Shown here: in pieces, positions 677-32,645 of the stretch | Numbering within the stretch: the stretch's first letter is position 1 | Layout of the letters: each line of letters begins with the position of its first letter | DNA from: Thermodesulfobacteriota bacterium | GTDB taxonomy: Bacteria > DASVDK01 | NCBI GenBank assembly: GCA_036381125.1 | Contig: DASVDK010000296.1 | Location: forward strand, 1 to 35,539 | Reading direction: 5' to 3' | DNA length: 35,539 nt | Translations under genes and position numbers: made by a program | Notes under the pieces: model-generated | Databases searched by the model: none | The model's input: the letters and a program-made list of their open reading frames with translations, nothing else | What the model was told of the DNA's origin: nothing

Positions 677-1462
677 TCACGCCTCCTCCTCGCCCCAGAT
701 CAGGCGCAGCACCTTCTCCCGCATGGCGACGAACTCCGGCAGGGCCTTGACCGACCGGCTGCCGGCCTGCCCGGCCTGCCGCCCGAAGGGCGCCTCGATG
801 CGGGCGATGATCCGGCCCGGCCGGGGCGACATGACGATGATCGTCGTGGCGAGGTAGACCGCCTCCTCGACGCTGTGGGTGATGAGGAAGACGGTCTTCC
901 TCGTCGCCTTCCAGATCTTGAGGAGCTCGTCCTGCAGGTGCTCGCGCGTGAGCGCGTCGAGGGCGCCGAACGGCTCGTCCATGAGGAGGATTCGCGAGTC
1001 GTTCGCGAGCACGCGGGCGATGGCGACCCGCTGCTGCATGCCGCCCGAGAGGGTGTACGGCGGCTTGGCCGCGAAGTCGGCGAGCCGGACCATCTCCAGG
1101 TACTCGGTCGCGATCCGGCGCCGCTCGGCCGCGGGCACTCCGCGCATCTTGGGGCCGAACTCCACGTTGTCCCTGACCGACAGCCAGGGGTAGAGCGCGG
1201 GGTGCTGGAAGACCACCCCGCGCTCGTGGTCCGGCTCGGTGATGGGCACGCCGTCCATGAGGACCCGACCCGAGGTCGGGGGCAGGAAGCCGGCGATCAG
1301 CCTGAGGAGCGTGGTCTTCCCGCAGCCGGAAGGGCCCACGACGCAGACGAAGTCGCCTTCCCGCATGGCGAGGCTCGCCCCGGCGACGGCCGTGACCGGA
1401 CCGTCCCTCGTCTCGAAGACGACCGAGACGTCGTCGACCTCGAGGATGGGCCGGCCGGCCAC
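677..1462 (-). CDS. tauB: Taurine/sulfonate ABC transporter ATP-binding protein
   Basis: Walker A GPSGCGKT, signature LSGGMQQR, Walker B LLMDEPFGALD, ITHSVEEA; adjacent to TauA/TauC-like genes. Confidence 0.88.
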   Translation of the reverse strand: MAGRPILEVDDVSVVFETRDGPVTAVAGASLAMREGDFVCVVGPSGCGKTTLLRLIAGFLPPTSGRVLMDGVPITEPDHERGVVFQHPALYPWLSVRDNVEFGPKMRGVPAAERRRIATEYLEMVRLADFAAKPPYTLSGGMQQRVAIARVLANDSRILLMDEPFGALDALTREHLQDELLKIWKATRKTVFLITHSVEEAVYLATTIIVMSPRPGRIIARIEAPFGRQAGQAGSRSVKALPEFVAMREKVLRLIWGEEEA

Positions 1463-1474
1463 GGCCGCGCGTTC

Positions 1475-2479
1475 CTACCGCCTGGCCGCCGTCTCGGCGT
1501 ACGTCGAGACCACCGCCTTCTGGAAGGTGGCCAGGTCGGGCGCCGAGCGGATGGTCTTCTGGGTCACGAGGAAGTCGGCCGCGTCCTTGAGGGCCCTGGC
1601 GACCCCGCCCTGGAGGTACTTCGGCGTCACGTGCTCCTCGGCGGTGAGGAACGTCATGGTCTTCATCTGGCGCAGCGCCTCGGCCTCGGGGATGCCGAAC
1701 TCCCTGGCCACGGCCCTGGCCGCCTCCTGGGGCTTCTCGCGGAAGAGCGTGACGGCGTCCGAGAGGGTCTTGACGTACGTGGTGACGACCTCGGGGTACT
1801 TCCGGGCGAAGTCCCTCCGGACGACCGCGACGTCGGCCGTGAGGTAGCCCTTCTCCGCGAGGGCGCGCGAGGAGACGAGGACCTCGCCGCCCGACTCGAG
1901 CATCTTGATCAGCGTCGGCTCCCAGACGAAGCCGGCGTCGATGTCGCCGCGCGTCCAGGCGGCCAGCATGTCGGGCGGCTGCATGTCGAGCACGGTCGCC
2001 TTCCTGGGGTCGAGGCCGAACTCCTTGAAGGCGACGAGGAGGTGGTAGTGCGTGGTGGAGCCGAAGGGCGCCGCCACCTTCTTGCCGGCGAGATCGGCGA
2101 CCTTCTCGACCCCCTTCCCCTTTCGGACGACGAGCGCCTCGTTGTCGCCGATGACGTCGTAGAGCCAGATGACCTCGTACGGGATGCCGCTCGAGATGCC
2201 GATGGCGGCCGGGCTCGAGCCGGTGAGACCGATGTCGACGCTGCCCGACGCCATGGCGGTGTTCACGTCGCGGCCGGAGTCGAACTGCCGCCACTCGATC
2301 TTGACGCCGAGCGCCTTCTCGTGCATGCCGAGGGCCTTGGCGATGATCTCCCCGTTCGGGATGATCTGGTAGGCGATCGTGATCTTCTCCGGCTTCGCCT
2401 GGGCGAAGAGCGGCGACGAGACCCCGGCGGCGACGAGGGTCGCGAGCGCGATGCCGACCAACCAGCGCCAGTGTTGCAT
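1475..2479 (-). CDS. tauA: Taurine/sulfonate ABC transporter substrate-binding protein
   Basis: C-terminal part of ORF 1475..3241; start at MQHWRWLVG (2479) after a GGGGAGG RBS. Signal peptide, then TauA-like motifs WRQFDSG, GSSP, PFGSTTHYHL, AAWTRGDIDAGFVWEP. Confidence 0.85.
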   Translation of the reverse strand: MQHWRWLVGIALATLVAAGVSSPLFAQAKPEKITIAYQIIPNGEIIAKALGMHEKALGVKIEWRQFDSGRDVNTAMASGSVDIGLTGSSPAAIGISSGIPYEVIWLYDVIGDNEALVVRKGKGVEKVADLAGKKVAAPFGSTTHYHLLVAFKEFGLDPRKATVLDMQPPDMLAAWTRGDIDAGFVWEPTLIKMLESGGEVLVSSRALAEKGYLTADVAVVRRDFARKYPEVVTTYVKTLSDAVTLFREKPQEAARAVAREFGIPEAEALRQMKTMTFLTAEEHVTPKYLQGGVARALKDAADFLVTQKTIRSAPDLATFQKAVVSTYAETAARR

Positions 2480-2529
2480 GGGGCGTACCTCCCCTCTTGC
2501 GTGGGCGCGGCGGCCGGTCCGCCGCGCCG

Positions 2530-3315
2530 TCACGCCTTCCCCTTCCACGGCACGAGCCGCCGCTCGGCCACGCGGATGACCCGGTCGAGCACCACGCCGG
2601 TGAGGCCCATGACGATGATCCCCATGAAGATGATGTCCGACCGGAGGAACTTCGACGCGTCGAGGACCATCCAGCCGACCCCCGACGTGGCCGCCACCAT
2701 CTCGGCGGCGACGAGCGTCGTATAGGTGAACCCGATCGAGACCCGCATGCCGGTGAAGATGTCCGGCAGGCACGACGGCAGGAGCACGTACCGGAACACC
2801 TGCCAGCGCGACGCGCCGAGGGAGCGGGCCCCCTGGATCCGCTCCTCCGAGACCCCCCGCACCCCCGCCATGGCGCTCACCGAGAGCGGAGGGAAGGCGG
2901 CCAGGTAGAGGAGCGCGATCTTCGAGGGGTTCTCGATGCCGAGCCAGATGACGAGCAGCGTGTAGTACGCGAGCGGCGGCAGCGGCCGGTAGAACTCGAT
3001 GATCGGGTCGAAGATCGCCTGGACCTTCGTCGAGTAGCCGATGGCGAGGCCGAGCGGCACGGCGGTGACCACGGCCAGGCCGAAGCCGACGAGCACCCGG
3101 TAGAGGCTGTCGGTCAGGTGGGCGAGGAGCGTCGGTCCCCTGTACCCGTCGGTCAGCGTCTCCTGGAACGCGAGCCAGACCGACTCCGGGTGCGGGACGA
3201 ACAGCTCCGGCAGGAGCCGCCACTCGGCCACGACGTACCACGCCAGCAGGATCGCGGCGATCGTCAGAGCGGTCAGCAGCGGTTCGACGCGCCTCGAACG
3301 CCGCGTGCTCGTCAT
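2530..3315 (-). CDS. tauC: Taurine/sulfonate ABC transporter permease
   Basis: DPIIEFYRPLPPLAY, ARSLGAS EAA loop, TLVAAEMVAATSGVGWMVLDASKFLRSD. Start could be 3315 (ATG) or further upstream (3360). Confidence 0.87.
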   Translation of the reverse strand: MTSTRRSRRVEPLLTALTIAAILLAWYVVAEWRLLPELFVPHPESVWLAFQETLTDGYRGPTLLAHLTDSLYRVLVGFGLAVVTAVPLGLAIGYSTKVQAIFDPIIEFYRPLPPLAYYTLLVIWLGIENPSKIALLYLAAFPPLSVSAMAGVRGVSEERIQGARSLGASRWQVFRYVLLPSCLPDIFTGMRVSIGFTYTTLVAAEMVAATSGVGWMVLDASKFLRSDIIFMGIIVMGLTGVVLDRVIRVAERRLVPWKGKA

Positions 3316-3361
3316 AGGGAGCGACGGCCTCCCGGGACCGGCCGGAGCGACGGCCCGCACC

Positions 3362-4120
3362 TCATCGTACTAGGAGCCAGAGCCCCGTGGCAAACACGAC
3401 TGTGGTCACCAGGGACAGGAACATGCGCTCCGACAGGCGGCCGTTTACCCGCTCTCCGAGGCGGCTGCCGGCCATCATGACCGGCGCCGCCGCGAGCCCG
3501 AGTGCGAGGTCGCGCGGCGTGAGCGCGCCGGCCGAGACGAGGAGCGGGATCTTCGCCACGTCCAGGACCAGCAGCAGCATCGCCAGCGACGCCACGAAGG
3601 CCGCCCGCGACAGGCGCGGCAACAGGTAGAAGGCGAAGACGAGCCCCCCGGAGTGGGCCAGGATGCTCACCACCCCCCCGCCGATGCCGCAGGCCGACGC
3701 GAGGGCGCGGGAGGTCCCCTTCCGCACGACCCGGTTCACGGCGGCACCGCCCGGGGCCCCCAGTAGCCGCCGCGCCTGCACGGTCGCGAAGGCGAGCGCC
3801 ACGACGCCCATCGCGCGACGCAGCCCCGACGCCGAGGCCGTGGCGACGAACAGCGCGCCGATGCCGATCCCGATCAGGGCGGCGGGGACGAGGACGCGCA
3901 CCGTGGGCCAGTGCCACCGGCGCCAGTGGGCCCGGAGCGTCGTCAGGTCGGTCACGAGCATGATCGGCGCCGTGATGCCGAGGGCCACGCGCGGGTCCAG
4001 GACCGCCGCCAGGAGCGGCACGGATACGGCGCCGCCGCCGAGGCCGACCGCCGACTTGACGAACCCCACGGCGAAGCCGACGAGGGCGACGAGCGCGAGG
4101 AGCGCCGGCTCGACGGTCAC
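3362..4120 (-). CDS. tauE: TauE/SafE family sulfite exporter
   Basis: C-terminal half of ORF 3362..4861; GTG at 4120 overlaps the tctA stop (GTGA). Hydrophobic, with the repeated motifs GFVKSAVGLGGG and GGVVSILAHSGG typical of TauE/TSUP proteins. Confidence 0.82.
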   Translation of the reverse strand: MTVEPALLALVALVGFAVGFVKSAVGLGGGAVSVPLLAAVLDPRVALGITAPIMLVTDLTTLRAHWRRWHWPTVRVLVPAALIGIGIGALFVATASASGLRRAMGVVALAFATVQARRLLGAPGGAAVNRVVRKGTSRALASACGIGGGVVSILAHSGGLVFAFYLLPRLSRAAFVASLAMLLLVLDVAKIPLLVSAGALTPRDLALGLAAAPVMMAGSRLGERVNGRLSERMFLSLVTTVVFATGLWLLVR

Positions 4121-5613
4121 GACGCGGGACGGCGGCCGGCAAGGTGCCGCTGGAGCGCCGGCCAGGCCAGGAGCGCGATCGACAGCACGACGAGGGCGGC
4201 GCTCACCGGCCGCCTGACGAACACCGTCAGGTCGTTGGCGTTGCTCACCATGGTCGTCAGGAAGTACTGCTCGCCGAGCGGCCCCAGGATGAGCCCGAGC
4301 ACCAGCGGCGGCACCGGGAGATCGTAACGCCGCATGACGAACCCGACGACGCCGAAGAGCATCGTGAGCCAGACGTCCGCCATGTTGTTGCGCAGGGCGA
4401 AGGCGCCGACGACGCAGAGCGCGCAGATGAGGGCGCCGAGGACCCCCGCGGGGATCCGCATGAGCGAGGCGAAGACTCGCGCCGCCAGGAGGCCGATCCC
4501 GATCATGAGCACGTTGGCGAGCAGGAAGCCGGAGAAGATCGTGTAGACGTCGAGCGCGTTGTTCCGGAAGAGGAGCGGGCCCGGCTGCACCCCGTGCAGC
4601 AGGAACGCCCCCATCATGACCGCCGTGGCGCCGCTCCCCGGGATGCCGAGCGTGAGGAGCGGGATCATCGCGCCGCCGGTGGAGGCGTTCACCGAGCTCT
4701 CCGCCGCCGTCAGCCCCTCGAGCGAGCCCTTGCCGAACCGCTCGGGCTCGCGCGCGAACTGCCGCTCGACGCCGTACGACACGAACGAGGACACGGTCGC
4801 CCCGGCGCCGGGTATGAGGCCGATGGTCGTGCCGACCGCCGACCCTCGCAGGAGCGACCACCGGTAGGGCCAGAGCTGCCGGAGCGACGGCAGCGCGGCG
4901 CGCCCCTCCACCCGCCCGTCGACCGGCGCCGGCGCCTCGCCGCCGCCGGCGAGCTGGTCGAGGATCTCGCCGACCGCGAAGAGGCCGATCAGCACGACCA
5001 CGAAGTCGATGCCGTCGCGCAGGATCGGGATGCCGAAGTCGAGGCGCGTGACCCCGTACTGCGAGTCGGTGCCGATCGAGCCGAGCACGATCCCGGCGAA
5101 GAGCGCGATGGCCGCCGAGACGATGGAGCGCGACCCGAGCACGACGACGCTCGCCATCCCGAAGAGCACGACGGCGAAGTACTCGGCGGTCGAGAACGAC
5201 AGCGCGACCCTGGCGAAGGGAGGGGCCGCGAGCGCCAGAAGGAGCGCCGACGCGAACCCGCCGAGCGCCGACGACATGATCGCCATGCCGAGGGCGAGCC
5301 GCACGTGCCCCTGGCGGTTGAGCGGGTACCCTTCCCAGGTCGTCGGCACGCTCATCGGATCGCCCGGGATGTTGAAGAGGATGCCGGTGATGGACCCGCC
5401 GAAGACGCCGCCGGCGTAGATGGACGACAGCAGCAGCAGCGACGGCGCGATGCCCATCAGGTACGTGAAGGGCAGGACGAGGACGACGGCGTTCAGCATC
5501 GTCACGCCGGGGAGCGCGCCGGCCACGACGCCGATCGTGAGGCCGAGGACGATCATGCCGAGGCTGACCGGTGCGAGCGCCGCGGCGAGACCGGCGAGCA
5601 GATCCGCGTCCAT
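4117..5613 (-). CDS. tctA: Tripartite tricarboxylate transporter large membrane subunit TctA
   Basis: GALPG, YAGGVFGGSITGILFNIPG, IPLLTLGIPGS, HGVQPGPLLF motifs; ATG at 5613 overlaps the tctB stop. Confidence 0.93.
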   Translation of the reverse strand: MDADLLAGLAAALAPVSLGMIVLGLTIGVVAGALPGVTMLNAVVLVLPFTYLMGIAPSLLLLSSIYAGGVFGGSITGILFNIPGDPMSVPTTWEGYPLNRQGHVRLALGMAIMSSALGGFASALLLALAAPPFARVALSFSTAEYFAVVLFGMASVVVLGSRSIVSAAIALFAGIVLGSIGTDSQYGVTRLDFGIPILRDGIDFVVVLIGLFAVGEILDQLAGGGEAPAPVDGRVEGRAALPSLRQLWPYRWSLLRGSAVGTTIGLIPGAGATVSSFVSYGVERQFAREPERFGKGSLEGLTAAESSVNASTGGAMIPLLTLGIPGSGATAVMMGAFLLHGVQPGPLLFRNNALDVYTIFSGFLLANVLMIGIGLLAARVFASLMRIPAGVLGALICALCVVGAFALRNNMADVWLTMLFGVVGFVMRRYDLPVPPLVLGLILGPLGEQYFLTTMVSNANDLTVFVRRPVSAALVVLSIALLAWPALQRHLAGRRPAS

Positions 5614-6128
5614 CAGAAGAGGCCCAGCCGGTGGTAGATCCACACGGTCGCGTCGAGGAGCGGCCCCTGGCCGCGCGGCAGCGGGACGTAGACGACCTTC
5701 ACGAACAGGTAGAGCAGCACGAGCGTGGCGGCGACCGCCGAGAGCCCGACCGTCGCGGGCCTCCGGTAGCGCCCGACCCGCATGAAGAGCGCGAGGAAGA
5801 TCGGCGTGGCGAGGACGAAGCCGGCGACCGGGAGGAGCGCGGTGTAGGCGAAGAGGAGGACGACGGCCAGGGTGACGCGACGCCGGTCGACGGCCTCGCC
5901 GTCGGCGCGTCCTCCGTTGCCGCCCGCCGCTTCGCGCCGCCCCCGGCCCCGCACCACCTGGACGATCTTGACGCCCGACAGGACGGCGAGGCCGGCGACG
6001 CCGAGCCGCGGCCAGAAGTCCGGCCCGAGCTGCCCCGGCACCGGGACGATCGGGATGTCGCCCGCCGCGACCCAGAGCAGGGCCGCGGCGGCGACGAGCA
6101 GGACCGGCCCGACGAGCGATCCGACCAT
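5613..6128 (-). CDS. tctB: Tripartite tricarboxylate transporter small membrane subunit TctB
   Basis: About 4 TM helices, LGPDFWP, GFVLAT and FVKVVYVPLPRG motifs; lies between tctC and tctA with overlapping start/stop codons. Confidence 0.87.
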   Translation of the reverse strand: MVGSLVGPVLLVAAAALLWVAAGDIPIVPVPGQLGPDFWPRLGVAGLAVLSGVKIVQVVRGRGRREAAGGNGGRADGEAVDRRRVTLAVVLLFAYTALLPVAGFVLATPIFLALFMRVGRYRRPATVGLSAVAATLVLLYLFVKVVYVPLPRGQGPLLDATVWIYHRLGLF

Positions 6129-7093
6129 TACCTGGCCTTGAGCCCGAATTCCTTGACGTACGCGTTGAGGACGTTCTCCTGCTCGCGGATCCACGCCGGG
6201 AACTGGTCGGGCCCCATGTAGCTGTCGGGACGCATGTACCAGTCGGCCGCGAACTTCTTCCACTCGGCGCTCTCCATGGCCTTGCGGAACGCCTCGGCGA
6301 GCGTCCTCAGCCGGTCGGGCGGCGTGCCGGCCCTGGCCACGATCCCTCGGAACTGCGGCAGCTCCACCTCGAAGCCCAGCTCGCCGGAGGCCGGCACGTC
6401 GGGGAAGGCCGGATGCCGCCTGGCCGCGAAGATGATGAGCGGCTTGAGCTGCTTCGCCTCGAGGAAGCTCTTCACGTCGCCCGCCTGCTCGTAGAGGACT
6501 TCGTTGTGACCGCCGACGACCGCCGCGTAGCGCTCGCCCGGCTTGGGGTACGGCACGACGGTCATCGGGAAGCCCCGATGGCCGAGGTAGCGGACCGTGA
6601 GGTCGTCGACGGTGCCGAAGCCGGTCGTCGCCACGCGCAGCTTGCCGGGGTTCGCCTTCGCGTGCGCGAGGAGCGCGTCGATCGTCTGGAAGGGGCCGTC
6701 GGCCTTCACGAAGAGGAACGAGTCGGCGACCTGCGTCCGGACGACCCAGGCGAGGTCGTCGACCTTGTAGGAGGCGAGCCCCAGGGCGATCGTGCAGAGC
6801 GTGTCCATGATGTACGTGGCGACCTGGTAGCCGTCCGGCCGGCCGTTCAGGATCTGCGCGAGCCCGGTGTTGCCCGAGCCGCCCGGGACGTTCACCGCCG
6901 GCAGCGCGACGCCGAGGTGGGGCTGCGCGAGCTGGGAGAGCTGGCGCGCCATCGAGTCGGCCCCGCCGCCCGGTCCCCAGGTGACGACGATCTCGACCGG
7001 CCGGGTCGGGTACTTCTCCTGCGCAACCGCCGGTCCGCTCGCCACGAGAGTGGCCGCGGCGGCCGCCGCGAGGGTCCTCCGCGTTCGTGTCAT
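6128..7093 (-). CDS. tctC: TctC/Bug family periplasmic substrate-binding protein
   Basis: Signal peptide, then YPTRPVEIVVTWGPGGGAD, VNVPGGSG, AKANPGKL, PAFPDVP motifs. Confidence 0.92.
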   Translation of the reverse strand: MTRTRRTLAAAAAATLVASGPAVAQEKYPTRPVEIVVTWGPGGGADSMARQLSQLAQPHLGVALPAVNVPGGSGNTGLAQILNGRPDGYQVATYIMDTLCTIALGLASYKVDDLAWVVRTQVADSFLFVKADGPFQTIDALLAHAKANPGKLRVATTGFGTVDDLTVRYLGHRGFPMTVVPYPKPGERYAAVVGGHNEVLYEQAGDVKSFLEAKQLKPLIIFAARRHPAFPDVPASGELGFEVELPQFRGIVARAGTPPDRLRTLAEAFRKAMESAEWKKFAADWYMRPDSYMGPDQFPAWIREQENVLNAYVKEFGLKAR

Positions 7094-8082
7094 CGGGCGC
7101 CTCCTTTTCCGCGTGCCTGCAGGGCGCCGATCGCAGCCACGGTCACGATGTCGTCAACCTGGCACCCTCGGGACAGGTCGTGCATGGGCTTCGCGAGCCC
7201 CTGGATGACGGGGCCGATCGCCTCGGCCCCGCCGAGCCGTTCGGTGATCTTGTAGGCGATGTTGCCGGCGTCGAGGTTCGGGAACACGAAGACGTTGGCG
7301 CGGCCCGGCACCGTCGAGCCGGGGGCCTTGCGCCGCCCGACCGCCTCCACCCAGGCGGCGTCGAACTGCAGCTCGCCGTCGATGTCGAGGTCCGGGCGGG
7401 CCGTGCGGGCCCGGGCCGTCGCCTCGCGCACCTTCGTGACCGCCTCGTGCTCGGCGCTCCCCTTCGTGCTGAACGACAGCATGGCCACGACCGGCTCCTC
7501 GCCGGTGAGGCGCCGGTGGGTCTCGGCCGACGAGAGGGCGATCGTCGCCAGGCCGGCGGCGTCGGGGTACGGGACGACCGCGCAGTCGCCGTAGGTGACG
7601 ACCCGCCCGTCCGGCAGGGCCATGAGGAAGACGCTGCTCGCGAGGCCCACGTCCGGTGCAAGCCCGATCACGTGGAGGGCCGCCCGGAGGACGTCGGCCG
7701 TGCGGCTCATCGAGCCCCCCACGCAGGCGTCCGCCTCGCCCGTCCGCACGAGCATGGCGCCGAAGACCAGCGGCGCGCGGACCGCCTCGCGGGCCTGCTC
7801 GGCCGTCATCCCCTTCGCCCGCCTCAGGTCGTGGAGGATCGCCGCGAACCGCTCCGCCCGGGGATCGGTCGCGGGATCGATCACGCCGACCGACGAGGGG
7901 TCGACGCCGGCGCGCCGCAGCGCGCCCGGCTCGCCGAGGAGGACCGGTCGCGCGATCCCCTCGCGCGCCAGGACGAGGGCCGCCTCGACGACCCGCGGGT
8001 CGGCCGACTCCGGCAGGACGACGCGCGCCGAGAGCGCCGACGCCGCCCGGCGAATCCGGTGGACGACCGGCGAGAGGCTCAC
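7090..8082 (-). CDS. pta: Phosphate acetyltransferase (short type)
   Basis: VVLPES.DPRV, YGDCAVVPYP, VAMLSFSTKGSA, DGELQFDAA, FPNLDAGNIAYK, DLSRGC. Confidence 0.95.
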   Translation of the reverse strand: MSLSPVVHRIRRAASALSARVVLPESADPRVVEAALVLAREGIARPVLLGEPGALRRAGVDPSSVGVIDPATDPRAERFAAILHDLRRAKGMTAEQAREAVRAPLVFGAMLVRTGEADACVGGSMSRTADVLRAALHVIGLAPDVGLASSVFLMALPDGRVVTYGDCAVVPYPDAAGLATIALSSAETHRRLTGEEPVVAMLSFSTKGSAEHEAVTKVREATARARTARPDLDIDGELQFDAAWVEAVGRRKAPGSTVPGRANVFVFPNLDAGNIAYKITERLGGAEAIGPVIQGLAKPMHDLSRGCQVDDIVTVAAIGALQARGKGGAR

Positions 8083-8972
8083 GGCCGGCCCCGCGGTCCG
8101 GCCGAGAGCCCCAGTTCCCGAAGGACCGGGCCGATCCGCGAGGGGACGTCCACGACGCGCGCGCCGCCCCTCGCCAGGGCGGCCATCTTGGCGGCCGCGC
8201 TCCCCTTCCCGCCCGACACGATGGCGCCCGCGTGCCCCATCCGCTTGCCGGGGGGGGCCGCCTGGCCGGCGACGAGCGCGACGACCGGCTTCGACATCCG
8301 CGGGACGTACTCGGCGGCCTCCTCCTCCATGCCGCCCCCGACCTCGCCCACGAGCACGATCGCCCGGGTCCGCGTGTCGGCCTCGAAGGCCCGGAGGACG
8401 TCGAGGTGGCTCGTCCCGTTGACCGCGTCGCCGCCGATCCCGACGAAGGCCGACTCGCCGAACCCGTCGCGCACGAGGTTGAGGCAGACGAGGGTGCCGA
8501 GGCTGCCGCTGCGCGAGACGACGCCGATCTCGCCGGGCCGGAAGATGTTGTCGGCCCAGGCCGGCATGATGCCGACGAAGGTCTCGCCCGGCGTGACCAG
8601 GCCGGGGCAGTTCGGTCCCACGACGCGCGCCCCCGCGTCGCGCGCCTCGGCGAGGACGGCCATGACGTCGTGCACCGGAATGTGCTCGGTGAGGACGACG
8701 ACCAGCTTCACGCCGGCGCCGATCGCCTCGAGGGCGGCCCCCTTCGCCGCCATCGGCGGCACGAAGAGGACCGACACGTCGACCGGACCGGCGGTCACGG
8801 CGTCGCGCACGCTGCCGAAGACCGGGACGCCCGAGACCGACTGGCCCGCCTTGCCGGGGCTCACGCCGGCCACCACGCGGGCGCCGTACTCGAGCATCCG
8901 CTCGGTCCAGAAGGAGGCCTCCCTGCCGGTGATCCCCTGGACGAGGATGCGGGCGTCGCGCCGCAGGATCAC
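8079..8972 (-). CDS. Succinyl-CoA synthetase alpha-like subunit; probable ADP-forming sulfoacetate-CoA ligase alpha subunit
   Basis: C-terminal part of ORF 8079..11357, GTG start at 8972 overlapping the upstream stop. VQGITG, GPNCPG, SRSG, GIGGD and phospho-His motif GKRMGHAGA. The substrate call is inferred from context. Confidence 0.85.
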   Translation of the reverse strand: MILRRDARILVQGITGREASFWTERMLEYGARVVAGVSPGKAGQSVSGVPVFGSVRDAVTAGPVDVSVLFVPPMAAKGAALEAIGAGVKLVVVLTEHIPVHDVMAVLAEARDAGARVVGPNCPGLVTPGETFVGIMPAWADNIFRPGEIGVVSRSGSLGTLVCLNLVRDGFGESAFVGIGGDAVNGTSHLDVLRAFEADTRTRAIVLVGEVGGGMEEEAAEYVPRMSKPVVALVAGQAAPPGKRMGHAGAIVSGGKGSAAAKMAALARGGARVVDVPSRIGPVLRELGLSAGPRGRP

Positions 8973-10099
8973 GACCGCTGCCTCGCGGCCTCGACGGCGG
9001 CCCTGACCGCGTCGTCCATCAGGTCGCAGGGGGTGATGCCGAGCCGCGCCTTCACGAGCTCGATCGCCCGCGCCTCGCCGGTCCCGTGGATGGAGAACGC
9101 GACCGGGAGGCTCGGCGCGAGCGCCTCCCACCCGGCCAGGAAGCCCTCGATGATCACGTCGGTGCGTGCGTAGGCGCCGCAGAGGTTCACCAGGAGGCTC
9201 TTCACGCGGGGGTTCGCGAGGACGAGACCGAGCGCCTCGGTGGCGCGCCGGTAGTTCTGGCCGCCGATCTCGAGGAAGTTGGCCGGCCGCCCGCCGAAGT
9301 GGGCGACCGCGTCCATCGTCGCCATGGTGAGCCCCGCGCCGTTGGCGAGGACCCCCACGTCGCCGTCGAGCTCGACGAAGAGGAGCCCCTGCTCGGCCCC
9401 CCGGCGCTCGAGCTCGGTCCCGGCGTGGGCCGGCTTCGGCAGCTCCGGGTGGCGGCCGACCGCGGCGTCGTCGATCACCACCTTCGCGTCGAGCGCCACC
9501 ACCCCGCCTCCCGGCTCGAGCGCGAGCGGGTTCACCTCGACCAGGTCGGCGTCGGTCGACCGGTAGACGGCGTAGAGCGTCGAGAGGAGCCGCGCGACGC
9601 CGGCGGCCGCGGGCCCGAGGCCGGCGCCGCCGAGCGCCGCCTCGGCCTCCGCGACCTCGAGCGGACGCCGGATGTCGAGCGGGCGCTGGATCACCGCGCC
9701 GGGCCGGACGGCGAAGGTCTCCTCGATGTCGACACCGCCCTCGGTCGAGAAGAGCAGCACCGGGCAGCGGCGCGCCGCGTCGGTCACGACGGCGGCGTAG
9801 AGCTCGCGCGCGATGTCGACCCGCGCCTCCACGCGCACCGCGTCCACGCGGAAGCCGGACACGTCGGATCCCAGGAGGTCCTGCGCCGCGACCCGGGCGT
9901 CGTCGGGAGTCGCGGCGAAGCGGATCCCCCCGCCCTTGCCTCGCCGCCCCGCCGGGACCTGGGCCTTGACGACGACCGGCCGCCCGACGGCCCGGGCGGC
10001 CTCGGCCGCCTCGTCGGCGGTGGTCGCCCTCGCCCCGCCGGGGACGCGTACGCCCGCCCGGGCCAGGATCGCCTTTGCCGCCCCTTCCTCGAGGAACAC
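8969..10099 (-). CDS. Succinyl-CoA synthetase beta-like subunit; probable ADP-forming sulfoacetate-CoA ligase beta subunit
   Basis: ATP-grasp motifs VVKAQVPAGRRGKGGG, EGGVDIEE, EVNPL, ALDAK, plus NGAGLTMATMD and PANFLEIGG. The substrate call is inferred from context. Confidence 0.85.
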   Translation of the reverse strand: MFLEEGAAKAILARAGVRVPGGARATTADEAAEAARAVGRPVVVKAQVPAGRRGKGGGIRFAATPDDARVAAQDLLGSDVSGFRVDAVRVEARVDIARELYAAVVTDAARRCPVLLFSTEGGVDIEETFAVRPGAVIQRPLDIRRPLEVAEAEAALGGAGLGPAAAGVARLLSTLYAVYRSTDADLVEVNPLALEPGGGVVALDAKVVIDDAAVGRHPELPKPAHAGTELERRGAEQGLLFVELDGDVGVLANGAGLTMATMDAVAHFGGRPANFLEIGGQNYRRATEALGLVLANPRVKSLLVNLCGAYARTDVIIEGFLAGWEALAPSLPVAFSIHGTGEARAIELVKARLGITPCDLMDDAVRAAVEAARQRS

Positions 10100-10102
10100 G
10101 CC

Positions 10103-11545
10103 CTAGCTCCCGTACCGCCGGAGGTAGTCGCCCCAGAGCGCCTCGTCGGTCGGCTCCTCGAGCGGGATCGGGCGCGACACCAGGGTGTAGTTGAGGAAGT
10201 GGGTGTAGGTGAGGTTCTCGTTGATGGAGTCGCCGCCCCAGATGCCGCAGGCGAGCGTGAGGGTGAACCTGAGCCCGTTGTCGAAGGCGCCGCCGTTGCC
10301 GATGCAGTGTGCCTGGTTCACGAGAACGCGGCCGACCTTGATCGTCACCGACTCGGCGAGCCGCCGGACGTGCTCGTCGTTCCGCGTGTGGATGCCGCAG
10401 GAGTGCCCCTTGCCCTGGTAGTCGAGGATGCCCGCCACGGTGCGGATCGCCTCGTCGAACTCGCCGTACCGGTAGAGCGTGAGGACGACCGACAGCTTCT
10501 CGCCCGAGAAGGGGTAGGCCTTCCCGTAGCCCGTCTCCTCGACCATCAGGAACGCGGCCTCCCTGGCCTCCGGGCTCGTGAGCCCGGCCAGCTCGGCGAT
10601 CCGGGCCGGCGGCTTCGCCACCACCTCGCGGTTGATGGCGCCGTTCGTCCACATCACGGCCCCGAGCCGCGCCTTCTCCTCGGGGGTGCAGAGGTAGCCC
10701 CCCTGCCTGCGCAGCTCGGCCACCATCCGGTCGTAGACGCCGGCCTGGATGACGAGGGCGTTCTCGGAGGAGCAGGAGGTCGCGTAGTCGAAGGTCTTGC
10801 TCTTGCGGATCTTCACCGCCGCCGACGCGAGGTCGGCCGTCTCGTCCACGATGACCGCCGCGTTGCCCGTGCCGGCCGAGACGGCCGGGCGGCCGCTGCG
10901 GTAGGCCGAGCGGACCTTCGGCTGCCCGCCGGTGACGAGCACCAGGTCCACCTGCTTCATCAGCTCGTCCCCGAGGGCGCGGGAGCGCTTCGGGTTCGGG
11001 GCCTTCAGCACCTGCACGATGTCGAGCGGCGCGCCGACCTTCTTCAGCTCCTCGTGGACCAGGCGGACGACCTCGAGGCAGGTCTTCTCGCCCGAGGGGT
11101 GCGGGGAGAGGACGATGGCGTTGCGCCCCTTGAGGACGCACATGATGTTGTGGACCGGAGTCGCGGCCGGGTTCGTGAGCGGGACGAACGCCCCCACCAC
11201 GCCGATCGGCTTGGCGATCTTGACGAGGCCCCGCGCGGGGTCCTCCTCGACCACGCCGACCGACTTCGCCCCCGTGAGGTCGCGCATCGTCCCCTTGGTC
11301 TTGCGTCGCAGCTTCGAGACCTTGTCCTCGAGGCGGCCGAGCCGGCTCTCCTCCCACGCCATCCGCCCGAGCGCCTCGGCGTTCGCGTAGCCGGCCCAGG
11401 CGGCGCCGGCCACGACCGCGTCCGTACGCGCCTGGTCGAACGTCTCGAACTCCGCCTGTGCCGCGCGCGCGCGGGCGACGAGGTCGCGGACGTACTGCTG
11501 CTCGTTCACGTCGAGAACCGCCGTCCCGGACACCGTCGTCTCCAC
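10103..11545 (-). CDS. sauS: CoA-acylating aldehyde dehydrogenase, SauS-like sulfoacetaldehyde dehydrogenase (acylating)
   Basis: C-terminal 480 aa of ORF 10103..14845; GTG at 11545 after GGAGGGAG. PIGVVGAFVPLTNP, SKTFDYATSCSSEN (catalytic Cys), YPFSGEKLS, NQAHC..GGAFDNGL.F.L.L.CG.WGG resemble SauS as I recall it; lies in the xsc operon. Confidence 0.8.
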   Translation of the reverse strand: METTVSGTAVLDVNEQQYVRDLVARARAAQAEFETFDQARTDAVVAGAAWAGYANAEALGRMAWEESRLGRLEDKVSKLRRKTKGTMRDLTGAKSVGVVEEDPARGLVKIAKPIGVVGAFVPLTNPAATPVHNIMCVLKGRNAIVLSPHPSGEKTCLEVVRLVHEELKKVGAPLDIVQVLKAPNPKRSRALGDELMKQVDLVLVTGGQPKVRSAYRSGRPAVSAGTGNAAVIVDETADLASAAVKIRKSKTFDYATSCSSENALVIQAGVYDRMVAELRRQGGYLCTPEEKARLGAVMWTNGAINREVVAKPPARIAELAGLTSPEAREAAFLMVEETGYGKAYPFSGEKLSVVLTLYRYGEFDEAIRTVAGILDYQGKGHSCGIHTRNDEHVRRLAESVTIKVGRVLVNQAHCIGNGGAFDNGLRFTLTLACGIWGGDSINENLTYTHFLNYTLVSRPIPLEEPTDEALWGDYLRRYGS

Positions 11546-11556
11546 CGTGCTCCCTC

Positions 11557-12864
11557 CTACCAGTAGGTCAAGGCGTCCCGATAGATCCCCTTGAGGTCGT
11601 CCATGGTGATCTCGCGGGGGGCGTTGTGCAGGAGTCGCTTCTGGGGAAACGACCCCTCGGCCAGCGCGTCGATGTCGGCTTCCGAGTACCCCACCTCCCG
11701 CAGGCCGTTCGGCATGTGGGTCGCCTTCATGAGCCTGATGATGGTGTCGGCCAGGAGCCGGCCTGCGTCCCGGAGGTCCACGTCGGTCGTGTCGGCGCCG
11801 AGGAGCCCCGCCGCCTCGATGTGGCGCTCCGGGCAGGCCGGCGCCGTGAAGCGGAAGACGGCCGGCGCGTTCAGGATGACCGACATGCCGTGGGGGACCA
11901 TCGGCTTGGCCGGGTAGTCCTTCGCCCGGAAGTCGCGCACCATGCCGGACACGGAGTACGACATGCCGTGCGGCGCGTGGCAGCCCGCGTTGCCGAAGCC
12001 GATGCCGGCCAGCGTGGCCGCGAACATCATCTGCTCGCGCGCCTCGACGTCGTTCGGGTCGTTGACCGCCCGGACGATGTACCGGCCGGTGAGCCGCATC
12101 GCCTCGGCGCAGGCGATGTCGCTGTACGGGTTGGCCCCCTGCGAGGCCGGCCGCTGCCTCGGCTGGGCCGACCGGGCCCGCCTGGTGAAGGGCAGCGCCG
12201 TGTACGACTCGACCGAGTGGCAGAGGACGTCGAAGCCGCTGCACGCCACCACGGTGGCCGGCATGGTCTTCGTCACGGTGGGGTCGATGAGGCCGAGGAC
12301 CGGCCGGATCCGCCTCGACACGATCCCGGTCTTCGCGTGCATCGACGTGAGGTCGAAGATCGCGATCGGCGTGCACTCGGACCCGGTGCCGGAGGTGGTC
12401 GGCACGGCGATCAGCGGCTTCACCGGGCCGGGCACCGGCTTCGCCTTCCCGATGGGGGCGTTCACGTAGTCGAGGAAGTCGGCCGGGTACGTGGCGTAGA
12501 GGTTCGCCGCCTTGGCCGTGTCGATCACCGACCCCCCGCCGACGGCCACGTACCCGTCGAACTTCCCCTCCGTGGCGAACGCCGCCGCCTGCTTGAACGA
12601 CGCGTCGGTCGGCTCGACCGTGACCTGGTCGTAGAGGATGACCTCCACGCCGGCCCGGGCGAGCGACTCCTGCACGACGGCGACGTGCTCGGTCTTCGCC
12701 AGGTTCGCGTCGGTGAGGAGCATGACGCGCGTCATGCCGTGCACCTGCGCGTCGTCGCCGATCTCCCGGAGCACGCCCGGACCGTACTTGACCGCGTTCG
12801 CGTCCACGGAGAAGGCCGTGTCGCCTCCCTCCGCGAATGCGTAGTACCCGAATCCACAGGCCAT
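11557..12864 (-). CDS. Iron-containing (group III) alcohol dehydrogenase, hydroxyacid-oxoacid transhydrogenase (HOT/ADHFE1)-like
   Basis: [84 protein letters not shown]-subfamily motifs. Confidence 0.87.
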
Positions 12865-12909
12865 GGTGAGGGCCTCCGTCCGCGAGGCCGGGCTCGGGCC
12901 CGGCCCCGC

Positions 12910-14622
12910 CTATTGCCTGTACCTGGGGAGGTACCGGACCGGCTTCTTGAGGGCGTCGCGGCGGAACGGATCGGCCAGCTCCTCGCCGTCCACCATGATG
13001 TCGAGGACCGTCGGCCGCCCCGACCGAAGCGCCGCGGACACGGCGTCGCGCACCTCGCCCGGGTGCTCGATCCGGTGTCCGTCGGCCCCCATTGCGCGCG
13101 CGACCGCCGCGAAGTCGGGGTTCTTCAGATTGGTCCCGATGAAGCGGTTGTCGTAGTAGTCGATCTGGTTCTTCTTCTCGGCGCCCCACTGCATGTTGTT
13201 GAAGACGCAGGCGACGACCGGGATGTTCTCCTGGACGGCCGTGATGACCTCCTGCAGGCTCATCCCCCACGCCCCGTCGCCGACGATGGCCACGACCGGG
13301 CTCTTCGGCTCGGCGACCTTGGCGCCGAGGGCGGCCGGGTAGGCGAAGCCGCAGTTGCCGAAGGAGAGCGCCGCCAGGAAGCGCCGCGGCCTCTCGAACC
13401 CGAGGAAGCTGTTGGAGGTGGAGCAGACGTTGCCGATGTCGGTCGTGACGATGGTGTCGGGCGTGAGCGCCGCCGCCAGCTCCCTGAGGGCCCGCTTCGG
13501 GCTCATCGGCGTGCGCGACGAGGACGCCAGCTCGTCGAGCTCCTTCTGCCACTTCGCGTTCTCGGCCGCCACGAGCGCCCGGCGCTCCGCATCGGGCCTG
13601 CGCGCGCCGCCGTCGAGCGCCGTGAGCCGCGAGAGGATCTCCCGGGCCGCCTCCCTCGCGTCGCCCACGATGCCGCAGGCGATCGGCTTGGTGAGCCCGA
13701 GCTGCCGGTGGTCGATGTCCACCTGGATGATCTTCGCGGTCTTCGGGAAGTAGTCGAAGCCGTACTGGGGGAGCGTCCCGAAGATCGACAGCCGGGTGCC
13801 GAGGGCGAGGACCACGTCGGCCTTCGAGATGAGCTGCATCGCCGACTTCCACCCGCAGTAGCCGAGCGGGCCCGCCATGAGCGGGTGCGACGCCGGGAAG
13901 GCGTCGTTGTGGAGGTAGGACGTCACGACCGGCGCCGTGAGGTACTCGGCCAGGGCCTTCACCTCCGCGATGCCGTCGGCGATGACGACCCCCTGCCCGG
14001 AGATGATCACCGGGAACCTCGCGTCCTTGAGAATCCGCGCCGCCGCGTCGAGCGACGCGGCGCCGCCCGGGCCCCGATCGGCCCACCGGTACTGCTCGGG
14101 CCTCAGGATCTCGGTGTCGATCTCCGCATAGAAGAAGTCGCGGGGGATGTCCACCTGGGCCGGGCCGCGCTCGGCGATCGCGATCCGGAACGCCGTCCGG
14201 ACCGACTCGGCGATCCGGTCGGGCCGCGGCACGCGCACCTGGTACTTCGTGATCGGCTGGAAGATCGGGAGCTGATCGGTCTCCTGGAAGCCGTTCGTCC
14301 CGACCATCGTCGTCGAGGCGGCCGGCGAGAGCATGACGACCGGCGTGTGCGCGTGGTACGCCGCCGCGATCCCCGTGACCATGTTGGTGATCCCGGGGCC
14401 GTTCTGGGCCGTGCAGACGCCCGGCTTCCCCGACACGCGGGCGTAGCCGTCGGCCATGTGCGCCGCCGTCTGCTCGTGACGGACCGGCAGGAATCGGATC
14501 TCCGCCTTCGGGAAGATGTCGAGGGCGTCCATGAACGCCGACCCGACGATCCCGGTGATCACCTCGGTCCCTTCGGCGCGCAACTGCTCGACCAGCGCCT
14601 CGCTGGGGCTCATCACTGGCAT
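12910..14622 (-). CDS. xsc: Sulfoacetaldehyde acetyltransferase (ThDP-dependent)
   Basis: Start MPVMSPSEALVE at 14622 after GGGAGG. GIVGSAFMD, HEQ, AQNGPGITN, GFQE, YLHNDAFP, GTLPQYG, TDIGN, FGNCG, GDGAWGMS and QWGAEKKNQ are Xsc-diagnostic; pta is in the same operon. Confidence 0.94.
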   Translation of the reverse strand: MPVMSPSEALVEQLRAEGTEVITGIVGSAFMDALDIFPKAEIRFLPVRHEQTAAHMADGYARVSGKPGVCTAQNGPGITNMVTGIAAAYHAHTPVVMLSPAASTTMVGTNGFQETDQLPIFQPITKYQVRVPRPDRIAESVRTAFRIAIAERGPAQVDIPRDFFYAEIDTEILRPEQYRWADRGPGGAASLDAAARILKDARFPVIISGQGVVIADGIAEVKALAEYLTAPVVTSYLHNDAFPASHPLMAGPLGYCGWKSAMQLISKADVVLALGTRLSIFGTLPQYGFDYFPKTAKIIQVDIDHRQLGLTKPIACGIVGDAREAAREILSRLTALDGGARRPDAERRALVAAENAKWQKELDELASSSRTPMSPKRALRELAAALTPDTIVTTDIGNVCSTSNSFLGFERPRRFLAALSFGNCGFAYPAALGAKVAEPKSPVVAIVGDGAWGMSLQEVITAVQENIPVVACVFNNMQWGAEKKNQIDYYDNRFIGTNLKNPDFAAVARAMGADGHRIEHPGEVRDAVSAALRSGRPTVLDIMVDGEELADPFRRDALKKPVRYLPRYRQ

Positions 14623-14666: not shown

Positions 14667-15461
14667 TCAGGATCGGCCGCGGCCCTCGCGCGACGCCTCG
14701 AGATACGCGCCGAGCTGGTCGGCCGCGGCGCGGAGATCGCCGAGGTGCTCGCGGGCCCTCGCGAGCGGCAGCCGGGCGCTCGGCGCCGAGACGGCGAGCC
14801 CCGCCAGCACCTTGCCCCGCCCGTCCCGCACCGGCACGGCGACACAGCAGACCCCGGCCAGGAACTCCTCGTTGTCCTCGGAGTGGCCGCGCGCCCGCGT
14901 GACGGCCAACTCGTCCTCGAGCCGGGCCCGGCTCGTGAGCGTGTTGCCGGTGCGAGGCTCGAGCGCCGCCACCATGAGGAGCCGCTCGCGCACCGCCTTC
15001 GGGGCGAAGGCGAGGAGTAGCTTCCCGATGGCGGTGCAGTGGATCGGCACCCGGCTGCCCGGCTTGAGCTCCATCCGCAAAGGCCACGACGACTCGACGC
15101 GCTCGAGGTACATCACCTCCCCCCCGTGCAGGACGCCGAGGTTCACCGTCTCGCCGAGCCGCTCCGAGAGCCGCTTGAGCACCGCCCGCCGGTTGCGGTG
15201 GACCGGAGCGGTCCGCAGCGCGTTCAGCGCCAGGCCGTCGAAGCGGCCCGCCACGACGTAGCGGCGCGCGAGGGGATCGCGCTCGATGAGCCCCTCCCCT
15301 TCGACGAGGGCGGCGAGGCGGTGCACCGTCGCCTTGGGCAGGCCGACCGCCCGGCTCAGCTCGGCCAGGCTGAGCGGCGCATCGGCCCCGGCCACGGCCG
15401 CGAGGATCCGCAGCGCCCGCACGACCGGCGAGTCAGCGGGGGATCCGTTTGTTCCACTCAC
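14667..15461 (-). CDS. IclR family transcriptional regulator (SauR-like)
   Basis: N-terminal HTH (RALRIL...LSLAELSRAVGLPKATVHRL), GETVNL, PIHCTAIGKLLLA, RGHSEDNEE. Confidence 0.92.
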   Translation of the reverse strand: MSGTNGSPADSPVVRALRILAAVAGADAPLSLAELSRAVGLPKATVHRLAALVEGEGLIERDPLARRYVVAGRFDGLALNALRTAPVHRNRRAVLKRLSERLGETVNLGVLHGGEVMYLERVESSWPLRMELKPGSRVPIHCTAIGKLLLAFAPKAVRERLLMVAALEPRTGNTLTSRARLEDELAVTRARGHSEDNEEFLAGVCCVAVPVRDGRGKVLAGLAVSAPSARLPLARAREHLGDLRAAADQLGAYLEASREGRGRS

Positions 15462-15489
15462 CGGAACGTCTCGTTCTGTTCACTGGATC
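15451..15489. promoter_or_regulatory. Two tandem candidate IclR operators (GTTC-N3-TCAC-N-GGA-N-C), 22 bp apart
   Basis: GTTCCACTCACCGGAAC (15451-15467, palindromic GTTCC-N7-GGAAC) and GTTCTGTTCACTGGATC (15473-15489) match at 12 of 17 positions and lie just downstream of the predicted -10. Confidence 0.55.
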
Positions 15490-15519
15490 AGCATGGAGTA
15501 CGGCAGCGGGCCGTGTCAA
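15490..15519 (-). promoter_or_regulatory. Candidate sigma70 promoter for the iclR-xsc operon
   Basis: TTGACA (15519-15514), 18 nt, CATGCT (15495-15490) on the minus strand. Confidence 0.55.
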
Positions 15520-15625
15520 CGCTTTTCAGAACGTGGTTCTTTCGCTGCGTCGCGGCCCGAGGCGAGCCGGCGTCCGACGCGCCTCGTCGGACGGGGCGTC
15601 TCGAGGCGGGCGGCGCGACGCCGCG

Positions 15626-19880: not shown

Positions 19881-19884
19881 GGGC

Positions 19885-22236: not shown

Positions 22237-22239
22237 GGC

Positions 22240-22710
<471 letters not shown>

Positions 22711-22753
22711 CGATCGCCCTCCTCGCGTATCGAGAACTGCGTTTTAGACTGCC

Positions 22754-22783
22754 AGTATGCGCGTCAGGCTCGCGGCAAGTCAA
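22754..22783 (-). promoter_or_regulatory. Candidate sigma70 promoter for form II coxSLM
   Basis: TTGACT (22783-22778), 18 nt, CATACT (22759-22754). Confidence 0.5.
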
Positions 22784-22960
22784 CTCCGTCGGGCCGGCCG
22801 GCCTGGCAGGCCCGCTCACGGTCCCGATTCCCTTCGACGCGTCCGAGGCCGGTCGACTTCCAGTCCGGGCGGGCTGTCCGGCAGAGCTACCCCTCTCGCC
22901 CCTGGCATGACAGGCAAGCGCTCGTACGGTATCCTCCACCCGCGAGAGGAGGAATCTCCG

Positions 22961-23191: not shown

Positions 23192-23213
23192 GCTACCGCG
23201 TCGGGGCCGGCCG

Positions 23214-23669: not shown

Positions 23670-23733
23670 CCCCGTGCCCTCCACGTCGCAGGGTCCAGCG
23701 TCGCACGAGAGGCCGGACGACCGCAACCACCCG

Positions 23734-32620: not shown

Positions 32621-32645
32621 GATGGCCGGCCGGGAGGCACGTGAG

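Follow-up and report, generated by a model that had tools for sequence, protein, structure and literature searches.

The window analyzed here is a stretch of 35,539 nucleotides (72% G+C) from contig DASVDK010000296.1 of the Thermodesulfobacteriota bacterium assembly GCA_036381125.1. Its minus strand carries a 15-gene operon for the breakdown of C2 sulfonates, from position 15461 to position 1. The third gene of this operon, with which this work is concerned, encodes P0001, an iron-containing alcohol dehydrogenase (Fe-ADH) from the subfamily of hydroxyacid-oxoacid transhydrogenases (HOT). P0001 probably interconverts isethionate (2-hydroxyethanesulfonate) and sulfoacetaldehyde.

The operon and its Fe-ADH

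Frame-specific G+C content at third codon positions (GC3) showed a single uninterrupted coding block over the limits of the operon, and Pfam and NCBIfam scans gave the gene order IclR, Xsc, Fe-ADH, SauS, SauC-like, SauD-like, Pta, TctC, TctB, TctA, TauE, permease, TauA/SsuA-like, ATPase, and amidase (Table 1). The open reading frame of P0001 starts with ATG, codes for 435 residues, and has a GC3 of 0.98. The original prediction had placed a HOT-type Fe-ADH directly between xsc and a SauS-like gene, with gaps of 45 and 11 bp; both distances are exact, and the Xsc and SauS models (TIGR03457 and NF047625) score above their cut-offs. Each gap carries a Shine-Dalgarno sequence: GGAGG lies 8 nt ahead of the Fe-ADH ATG in the first, and GGAGGGAG overlaps the stop codon in the second. 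The first gap also contains, after the stop codon of xsc and ahead of the ribosome-binding site for the Fe-ADH, a 12-bp perfect GC hairpin without a T-run, which is not significant for its composition (fold energy -30.8 kcal/mol, z = -1.74). A promoter and terminator scan, uninformative overall, found no terminator-like site on the minus strand.

Some of the assignments in Table 1 call for comment. The pta and sauD calls rest on Pfam, as the gene caller misses both genes. The SauC-like protein scores under the SucC cut-off (314 vs 370 bits) and is syntenic with SauS, as in Liu et al. 2023. No NCBIfam model was above cut-off for the IclR-family gene, and no taurine-deaminating gene was found in the window.

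Table 1 Features of the minus-strand operon, in the direction of transcription
Feature	Position	Strand	Evidence and remarks
IclR-family regulator, first gene of the block	14667..15461	-	Pfam IclR_C 151 bits, HTH_IclR 54 bits
Xsc, sulfoacetaldehyde acetyltransferase	12910..14619	-	TIGR03457 837 bits vs cut-off 676; NF005713 838 vs 620
xsc/Fe-ADH spacer, 45 bp	12865..12909	-	12-bp GC hairpin and GGAGG ribosome-binding site
P0001, HOT-subfamily Fe-ADH	11557..12864	-	insert 1 at residues 224-241, insert 2 at residues 313-321; signature C295, A297, S306, K409
SauS, acylating sulfoacetaldehyde dehydrogenase	10103..11545	-	NF047625 642 bits vs cut-off 600
SucC-like beta subunit of an ADP-forming CoA ligase, read as SauC	8969..10099	-	Pfam ATP-grasp_2, Ligase_CoA
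SucD-like alpha subunit, read as SauD	8079..8972	-	Pfam CoA_binding, Ligase_CoA; TIGR01019 367 bits vs cut-off 353
Pta, phosphate acetyltransferase	7090..8082	-	PF01515 383 bits; TIGR00651 356 bits vs cut-off 311
TctC-type binding protein, SauZ-like	6128..7093	-	PF03401 110 bits
TctB-type small membrane subunit	5613..6263	-	PF07331 69 bits
TctA-type large membrane subunit	4117..5643	-	PF01970 460 bits
TauE/SafE-type sulfite exporter	3362..4120	-	PF01925 111 bits
ABC permease, TauC-like	2530..3360	-	PF00528 87 bits
TauA/SsuA-like sulfonate-binding protein	1475..2533	-	TIGR01729 291 bits vs cut-off 304; SsuA_fam 181 vs 163.5
ABC ATPase, TauB-like	677..1462	-	PF00005 119 bits
Amidase-signature enzyme, N-terminal 212 aa present, runs off the contig end	1..636	-	PF01425 256 bits

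P0001 matches the Pfam families Fe-ADH (PF00465, 151 bits) and ADH_Fe_C (PF25137, 115 bits). Its AlphaFold2 model has a mean predicted local distance difference test score (pLDDT) of 90.7, and the two-domain fold of the superfamily is recovered by Foldseek, with TM-scores of 0.82-0.84 to Fe-ADH structures. The HOT subfamily (cd08190) is defined by two loop inserts, of 19 and 13 residues in human ADHFE1; they lie between helices alpha5 and alpha6 (about 19 residues) and between alpha8 and alpha9 (about 13 residues) (Gaona-Lopez et al., PMC5125639). Both are present in P0001. We aligned 14 HOT-like rows with the non-HOT Fe-ADHs of the surveyed loci, an alignment that did not include human ADHFE1. 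Insert 1 (18 residues) was found in 14/14 HOT-like rows and was missing from the 14 non-HOT rows, L051 being left out of this outgroup count. Insert 2 measures 9 residues in the multiple alignment. A pairwise alignment of P0001 with the conventional Fe-ADH of locus L129 likewise showed gaps of 18 and 12 residues at the two insert sites. Insert 1 carries R238, Q242, G243, N245, and S248, which are invariant across 84 family members.

Database labels pointed the same way. Among the matches listed in a protein search, homologs of P0001 occur at 94%, 91%, and 89% identity and downward, and NCBI and JGI label many of them "hydroxyacid-oxoacid transhydrogenase"; among the ESM Atlas clusters, a eukaryotic "HOT, mitochondrial" one is nearest (score 0.98). 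The subfamily assignment made in the original prediction was thus upheld by the inserts, the names of the homologs, and the Atlas cluster. The family is large, with at least 8000 candidates in the protein search, and no HOT structure is present in the PDB. As proxies for the relationship of P0001 to HOT, TauF, and SarD, we used the NCBIfam cut-offs, the scores of PDB matches, and the positions of the HOT inserts. P0001 falls under the cut-off of every NCBIfam Fe-ADH model, including those for SarD (NF050025, 206 bits vs a cut-off of 700) and for NAD-dependent 4-hydroxybutyrate dehydrogenase (NF058672, 170 bits vs 500). BkTauF (PDB 6jko) is remote from it, ranking 22nd of 34 PDB matches by phmmer (87 bits, E = 1.5e-23) and 30th by Foldseek, with 26% identity. 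The best PDB match is the methanol dehydrogenase of Bacillus methanolicus.

The genome to which the window belongs (4.3 Mb, 96% complete) has single copies of Xsc, Fe-ADH, SauS, Pta, and TauE, and P0001 is its sole Fe-ADH at E <= 1e-10. Other functions of the operon are redundant, with four more SucCD-like pairs elsewhere in the genome, more than 25 TctA paralogs, and at least 12 further amidase paralogs. One same-genus relative was present among the 40 relatives searched; the others are listed as sharing the domain only.

Linkage to xsc and a residue signature

Survey loci were collected by peptide-pattern scans of genome contigs (58 loci) and metagenome contigs (68 loci), and 108 loci outside the window's own genome were found to carry a gene of the HOT family with an identity of at least 40%. 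Xsc lies within 2 kb of this gene in 14 of the 108, and likewise in 9 of the 50 loci that have at least 3 kb on both sides. The linked Xsc proteins are 57-64% identical to that of the window outside the genus and 100% identical in the same-genus locus L003. Thirteen of the 14 matches extend over more than 100 residues; the fourteenth is L003, where the first 277 bases encode the last 92 Xsc residues and the order Xsc-HOT-SauS-SauC is kept. The original prediction had called for a survey of HOT-xsc co-localization, and on the HOT side the linkage does recur; it is rare when viewed from Xsc, as none of 47 Xsc-bearing genomes of two sampled phyla had a HOT-family gene.

Neighbor annotation and cross-matching placed the Xsc-linked loci in six architectures. 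Architecture A, that of the window and L003, is Xsc-HOT-SauS-SauC and onward. Architecture B (L071, L107, L082, and L113) is SauS-SauC-SauD-Xsc-Pta-HOT-(TauE)-MFS, and architecture C (L063) is MFS-SauS-SauC-SauD-GntR-Xsc-HOT-MFS. The set SauS-SauCD-Xsc-Pta-HOT recurs in five of the 14 loci. In architecture D (L007 and the L065-L067 group, the L065 group being assigned by tblastn), TauE-Pta-Xsc is divergent from HOT-Na_Ca_ex; in L005, Xsc and HOT-Na_Ca_ex are arranged alike, with TauE further along the contig. Architecture E (L006 and the partial contigs L088 and L089) has a binding protein, Xsc, and HOT, followed by a TauABC-like importer of the type found in the window. The window's own importer subunits are related to those of L006 and L088: the permease is 47-50% identical to the permeases beside their HOT genes, the binding protein 40-42% to theirs, and the ATPase 57-58%. 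Architecture F (L014) is Liv-type ABC-HOT-Xsc-NMO. Two loci deserve a separate remark. In L006, from a Candidatus Velthaea metagenome-assembled genome (MAG), the Xsc beside the HOT gene (8295-9976) is split into tblastn pieces at 8295-8807 and 8819-9976, and its match to the Xsc model in a search of the whole genome starts no earlier than position 162. Either a frameshift or faulty assembly could account for this. In L050, from a Candidatus Accumulibacter MAG, the HOT-like gene appears split into 10001-10639 and 15346-15873, with about 4.7 kb between them, as an insertion would leave it.

When 87 rows were placed on a maximum-likelihood tree, those linked to Xsc occurred in at least four places inside one clade of 55 rows. 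The Xsc-linkage label requires 6 changes on this tree, against a mean of 10.6 for shuffled labels, and none of 500 shuffles gave a value as low.

Comparison of 12 Xsc-linked rows with 68 other rows identified four signature columns. Residue 295 is Cys in 12/12 linked rows vs 13/68 others, residue 297 is Ala in 10/12 vs 6/68, residue 306 is Ser in 12/12 vs 20/68, and residue 409 is Arg in 10/12 vs 3/68, with Lys at this position in P0001. Val at 295, Leu at 297, and Gln or His at 409 occur in other clades. The full signature, C295/A297/S306/[RK]409, is present in 16 of 84 sequences, and 10 of these 16 have Xsc adjacent. Three others are on short contigs (L064, L068, and L069), on each of which a flanking gene (Na_Ca_ex, MFS, or Pta) is 81-99% identical to its counterpart in Xsc-linked loci. 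The last three (L008, L010, and L070) cluster with genes for an alanine dehydrogenase and an AptA-type omega-aminotransferase; the genomes of L008 and L010 encode Xsc elsewhere, and L070 is a metagenome contig. Partial signatures occur in two Xsc-linked rows, L005 (Leu297) and L014 (Leu297 and Gln409). Judged from these neighborhoods, the signature tracks sulfoacetaldehyde contexts. In the two Kiloniellaceae loci, L008 and L010, a DAO-GcvT fusion resembling dimethylglycine dehydrogenase is found together with the alanine dehydrogenase, HOT, and aminotransferase genes. The Xsc gene of L010 may lie about 21 kb off, if contig C4 of genome G043 is the contig of this locus, an identity taken from the record name.

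C295 and A297 lie on either side of His296, a residue that is invariant in a 50-sequence alignment and whose surroundings we take to be the metal site, by homology with other Fe-ADHs. The basic residue at position 409 could bind the sulfonate group. This idea is encouraged by PhpC, a pf00465 2-hydroxyethylphosphonate dehydrogenase that oxidizes the phosphonate analog of isethionate: in the authors' model, basic residues (Lys/Arg) clamp the anionic group of the substrate (PMC13576164), and R/K409 of P0001 could act in a similar way. PhpC is a conventional Fe-ADH that uses free NAD+, and it had no appreciable activity on isethionate (PMC13576164).

Proposed function and its alternatives

We infer from these data a composite operon with two entries, in which P0001 would serve the second. 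In the first, sulfoacetate would be imported by the TctABC-type transporter, activated by the SauCD-like ADP-forming ligase, and reduced to sulfoacetaldehyde by SauS. In the second, isethionate would be taken up, most likely by the TauABC-like importer, and oxidized to sulfoacetaldehyde by P0001. The two would meet in a shared core, where Xsc would cleave sulfoacetaldehyde to acetyl phosphate and sulfite, Pta would make acetyl-CoA, and TauE would export the sulfite. The link of P0001 to sulfoacetaldehyde rests on its neighbors, as Xsc, SauS, Pta, and TauE are read as belonging to the making or consumption of this aldehyde. The claim that P0001 makes or uses sulfoacetaldehyde, already put forward in the original prediction, gained further weight from the recurrence of the Xsc linkage in six architectures and from the residue signature. 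The oxidative direction, and isethionate as the substrate, are suggested by architecture D, where no sulfoacetaldehyde-forming gene other than HOT was found among the annotated neighbors; HOT would be the sole possible source of the aldehyde there, and isethionate is the only alcohol whose oxidation yields it. For the hydride acceptor, we slightly favor exchangeable NAD+, on the model of IseD, TauF, and SarD; a bound cofactor reoxidized by an oxoacid, as in ADHFE1, is somewhat less likely.

The original prediction had also allowed for 3-hydroxypropanesulfonate, the sulfonate analog of 4-hydroxybutyrate, as a substrate. Xsc acts on sulfoacetaldehyde, and the aldehyde formed from 3-hydroxypropanesulfonate is not its substrate. 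As no Xsc-HOT locus adds a gene that handles 3-sulfopropanal, 3-hydroxypropanesulfonate was rejected as the main substrate.

Two other known routes through the same intermediates are not evident in the genome. A Bilophila-type route (SauS, a reductase, and a glycyl-radical lyase) was rejected, as this 96% complete genome shows no dsrA and no glycyl-radical or pyruvate formate-lyase (PFL)-like enzyme. An IseJ route is not evident either, since the only GMC match in the genome is a weak, partial fragment.

Several observations weigh against an isethionate function. The sulfoacetate route requires no alcohol dehydrogenase. Most HOT-family loci (94/108) are without Xsc, and the neighbors of these other family members are heterogeneous, among them aminotransferases, a CoA-transferase, and ABC transporters. 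Outside the genus, the nearest relatives (L004, L061, and L062, 74-78% identical) have no Xsc in their flanks of 1.6-10 kb; their neighbors are unrelated (an SNF2 helicase, a CoA-transferase, and a sugar-binding protein), and Xsc was not found anywhere in the L004 genome, whose completeness is unknown. Among 400 genomes sampled from the phylum of L014, none of 26 further Xsc-bearing genomes had a HOT-family gene (best match 36% identity), nor did any of 21 Xsc-bearing genomes in a like sample of the phylum of L053. The same 26 genomes showed no Fe-ADH near Xsc. The survey itself leans toward relatives of P0001, as all loci were found by peptide patterns derived from it. Finally, a 2016 survey of the family stated that HOT activity outside animals is unknown (PMC5125639).

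The best supported of the alternatives refines the proposed isethionate function and is tentative in comparison with it. P0001 may be a nicotinoprotein isethionate:2-oxoglutarate transhydrogenase, in which tightly bound NAD(H) would take the hydride of isethionate and, within one and the same site, hand it to an oxoacid such as 2-oxoglutarate; no free NAD+ would be needed, and the D-2-hydroxyglutarate formed would be reoxidized elsewhere. Such an enzyme would form a third mechanistic class after IseJ and IseD. The oxidation of an alcohol by NAD+ is thermodynamically unfavorable, and the methanol dehydrogenase of B. methanolicus is a nicotinoprotein with bound NAD, both of which speak for this mechanism. 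So do the HOT membership of P0001, the presence of both inserts with family-invariant residues in the first, and the eukaryotic HOT in the nearest Atlas cluster. The mammalian ADHFE1 enzymes, the sole characterized HOTs according to the family survey, bind their cofactor tightly and need no added NAD(P)+ (PMC5125639), and IseJ, the best-known isethionate dehydrogenase, likewise avoids NAD+ (PMC6453916). The 4-5 genes of the FAD-oxidase_C family in the genome could include a D-2-hydroxyglutarate dehydrogenase, although this family is nonspecific and its presence is uninformative, as it is found in 10 of 14 control genomes. However, no gene of the FAD-linked 2-hydroxyacid or D-2-hydroxyglutarate dehydrogenase type was seen among the annotated neighbors in the six architectures, and we know of no sequence feature that predicts tight cofactor binding. 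In addition, the characterized Fe-ADHs acting on isethionate or sulfoacetaldehyde (IseD, TauF, and SarD) all use free NAD(H), and the signature-bearing relatives placed between an alanine dehydrogenase and an omega-aminotransferase sit where free NADH would be the natural partner.

It is unlikely that P0001 works in the reductive direction as a safety valve, by which excess reactive aldehyde, produced by SauS or, in relatives, by taurine transamination, would be converted to isethionate for excretion or storage. The equilibrium of the reaction does favor reduction. Besides the window, 6 loci combine HOT with SauS-SauCD, and 3 combine it with the alanine dehydrogenase and aminotransferase genes; in either setting the aldehyde is already supplied by another enzyme. 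In Bilophila, the Fe-ADH reductase TauF acts together with the SauCD-SauS cluster (PMC10413351). However, Xsc of the same operon already removes the aldehyde, and the genome has no glycyl-radical isethionate lyase that would use the isethionate afterwards. Loci of the L005/L007 type also argue for oxidation, with HOT as the only possible aldehyde source among the annotated genes, beside Xsc, Pta (in L007), TauE, and a transporter, as does the pairing of HOT with an importer of the taurine/sulfonate type in the window, L006, and L088.

Less probable still is an oxidative, ATP-yielding branch beside Xsc, in which P0001, SauS, and SauCD would carry an alcohol through the aldehyde and acyl-CoA to the acid, so that isethionate (or 3-hydroxypropanesulfonate) would yield sulfoacetate (or 3-sulfopropionate) with substrate-level phosphorylation. 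The adjacency of HOT, SauS, and SauCD is kept in the window, L003, L063, L071, L082, L107, and L113, and the reactions of acylating aldehyde dehydrogenases and of ADP-forming ligases can run both ways. In its section headings, Liu et al. 2023 names sulfopropionyl-CoA as a product of BwSauCD, detected by liquid chromatography-mass spectrometry (PMC10413351). On the other hand, Xsc, Pta, and TauE in the same operons indicate desulfonation, HOT-Xsc loci without SauS/SauCD (L005, L006, L007, and L014) are about as common, and the TctC-type binding protein is a marker of sulfoacetate uptake clusters (PMC10413351).

That P0001 is an ordinary HOT acting on 4-hydroxybutyrate or 3-hydroxypropionate, present in a sulfonate operon by chance, seems very improbable: the 94 unlinked loci with their heterogeneous contexts and the unlinked closest relatives outside the genus fit this explanation, but Xsc is present in only 27/401 and 21/401 sampled genomes and yet adjoins 14/108 HOT loci in six architectures, the residue signature tracks the Xsc context, and the gene itself is tightly spaced and translationally coupled between xsc and sauS.

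Relation to known systems

Among characterized proteins, P0001 shares its subfamily with mammalian ADHFE1 (cd08190), including both inserts and the conserved NAD-binding and metal-ligand motifs, a likeness drawn without a direct alignment to ADHFE1. Unlike ADHFE1, it is bacterial and encoded in a sulfonate operon, and its substrate is likely a sulfonate rather than a carboxylate. TauF and SarD act on the same substrate pair and belong to the Fe-ADH superfamily; they differ in working reductively, in feeding a glycyl-radical lyase, and in having no HOT inserts by family definition. These two and IseJ had been named in the original prediction, whose list of known enzymes omitted IseD.

IseJ is GMC-type and linked to cytochrome c. 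It catalyzes the same proposed step upstream of Xsc (PMC6453916), and differs from P0001 in being an unrelated, membrane-bound flavoprotein. IseD of Bacillus krulwichiae is an NAD-dependent Fe-ADH isethionate dehydrogenase, and it resembles P0001 in its superfamily and in the proposed feeding of sulfoacetaldehyde from isethionate to Xsc (PMC11423573, PMC13474568). P0001 is likewise an Fe-ADH encoded next to xsc, the mark of the IseD type. IseD was reportedly described by Tong et al. in 2019 in Appl Environ Microbiol.

Conventional Fe-ADHs directly follow Xsc in 2 of the 21 Xsc-bearing genomes of the phylum of L053, which is of the Bacillota type. These proteins, from loci L129 and L130, share 26% identity with P0001 in the genome search and are lactaldehyde-reductase-like by NCBIfam; that of L129 is 23% identical by BLASTP, and both HOT inserts are missing in the alignment. 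They may represent the Gram-positive IseD type. If IseD is of the L129 kind, P0001 would be a non-orthologous replacement. The two loci (5825-10364 in L129 and 5689-10227 in L130) encode in a row a LysR regulator, a 3-hydroxyacyl-CoA dehydrogenase-like protein, an MFS transporter, an ALS-like thiamine diphosphate enzyme, Xsc, the Fe-ADH, and an aldehyde dehydrogenase. This row is possibly an IseD-type isethionate cluster with an extra sulfoacetaldehyde dehydrogenase.

The closest match to the remainder of the operon is the sulfoacetate clusters SauXYZ-SauCD/SauT-SauS-Xsc of Liu et al. 2023, which comprise the TctC-type SauZ (the cluster marker), the PF00549 ligase SauCD, SauS, and Xsc (PMC10413351). 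The window has SauS, a two-subunit PF00549 ligase beside it, TctC with a tripartite tricarboxylate transporter (TTT), and Xsc, so that Xsc and the segment running from SauS to TctA correspond to these clusters (PMC10413351). The HOT-type Fe-ADH, the TauABC-like importer, and the amidase go beyond the cluster description in the available text of that paper, although its Figure 6 or supplement may show such an Fe-ADH.

The reaction and its place before Xsc are already known from IseJ and IseD, and the sulfoacetate module from Liu et al. 2023. What appears to be new, as our sequence comparisons suggest, is a HOT-subfamily enzyme at the step from isethionate to sulfoacetaldehyde. The original prediction knew of no described example of this entry route. 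This holds for the HOT subfamily, but entry to Xsc through an Fe-ADH had already been described with IseD. Our literature search found no link of HOT to isethionate, sulfoacetaldehyde, or Xsc, with the proviso that the cluster figures of Liu et al. 2023 may already show such a gene; a search on DddA and 3-hydroxypropionate found no match.

Isethionate and sulfoacetate are abundant C2 sulfonates, and the step from isethionate to sulfoacetaldehyde is known from two enzyme types only, IseJ and IseD, to which the HOT lineage appears to add a third. The recruitment of HOT has apparently taken place in several uncultured lineages from soil, freshwater, and the sea. The proposed function would be a first job for the HOT family in bacteria, a family that occurs in all three domains of life, and the four-residue signature could be used to annotate sulfonate metabolism in metagenomes. 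If P0001 is a true transhydrogenase, sulfonate catabolism would be linked to D-2-hydroxyglutarate metabolism, an unfavorable alcohol oxidation would be driven by the 2-oxoglutarate/D-2-hydroxyglutarate couple, and the large bacterial and archaeal HOT family would gain its first physiological function.

Two further features of the window should be mentioned. A TauABC-like importer followed by an amidase stands at the end of the operon; possibly the operon also handles, as a third substrate, a sulfonate in amide linkage, for example an N-acyl taurine or a compound of the sulfoacetamide type. Outside the operon, two molybdenum hydroxylase sets (19014-23726 and 32622-35015) flank the region; they encode CoxL/XdhA-like large subunits of 783 and 797 residues and an FAD subunit, and are apparently unrelated to the sulfonate genes.

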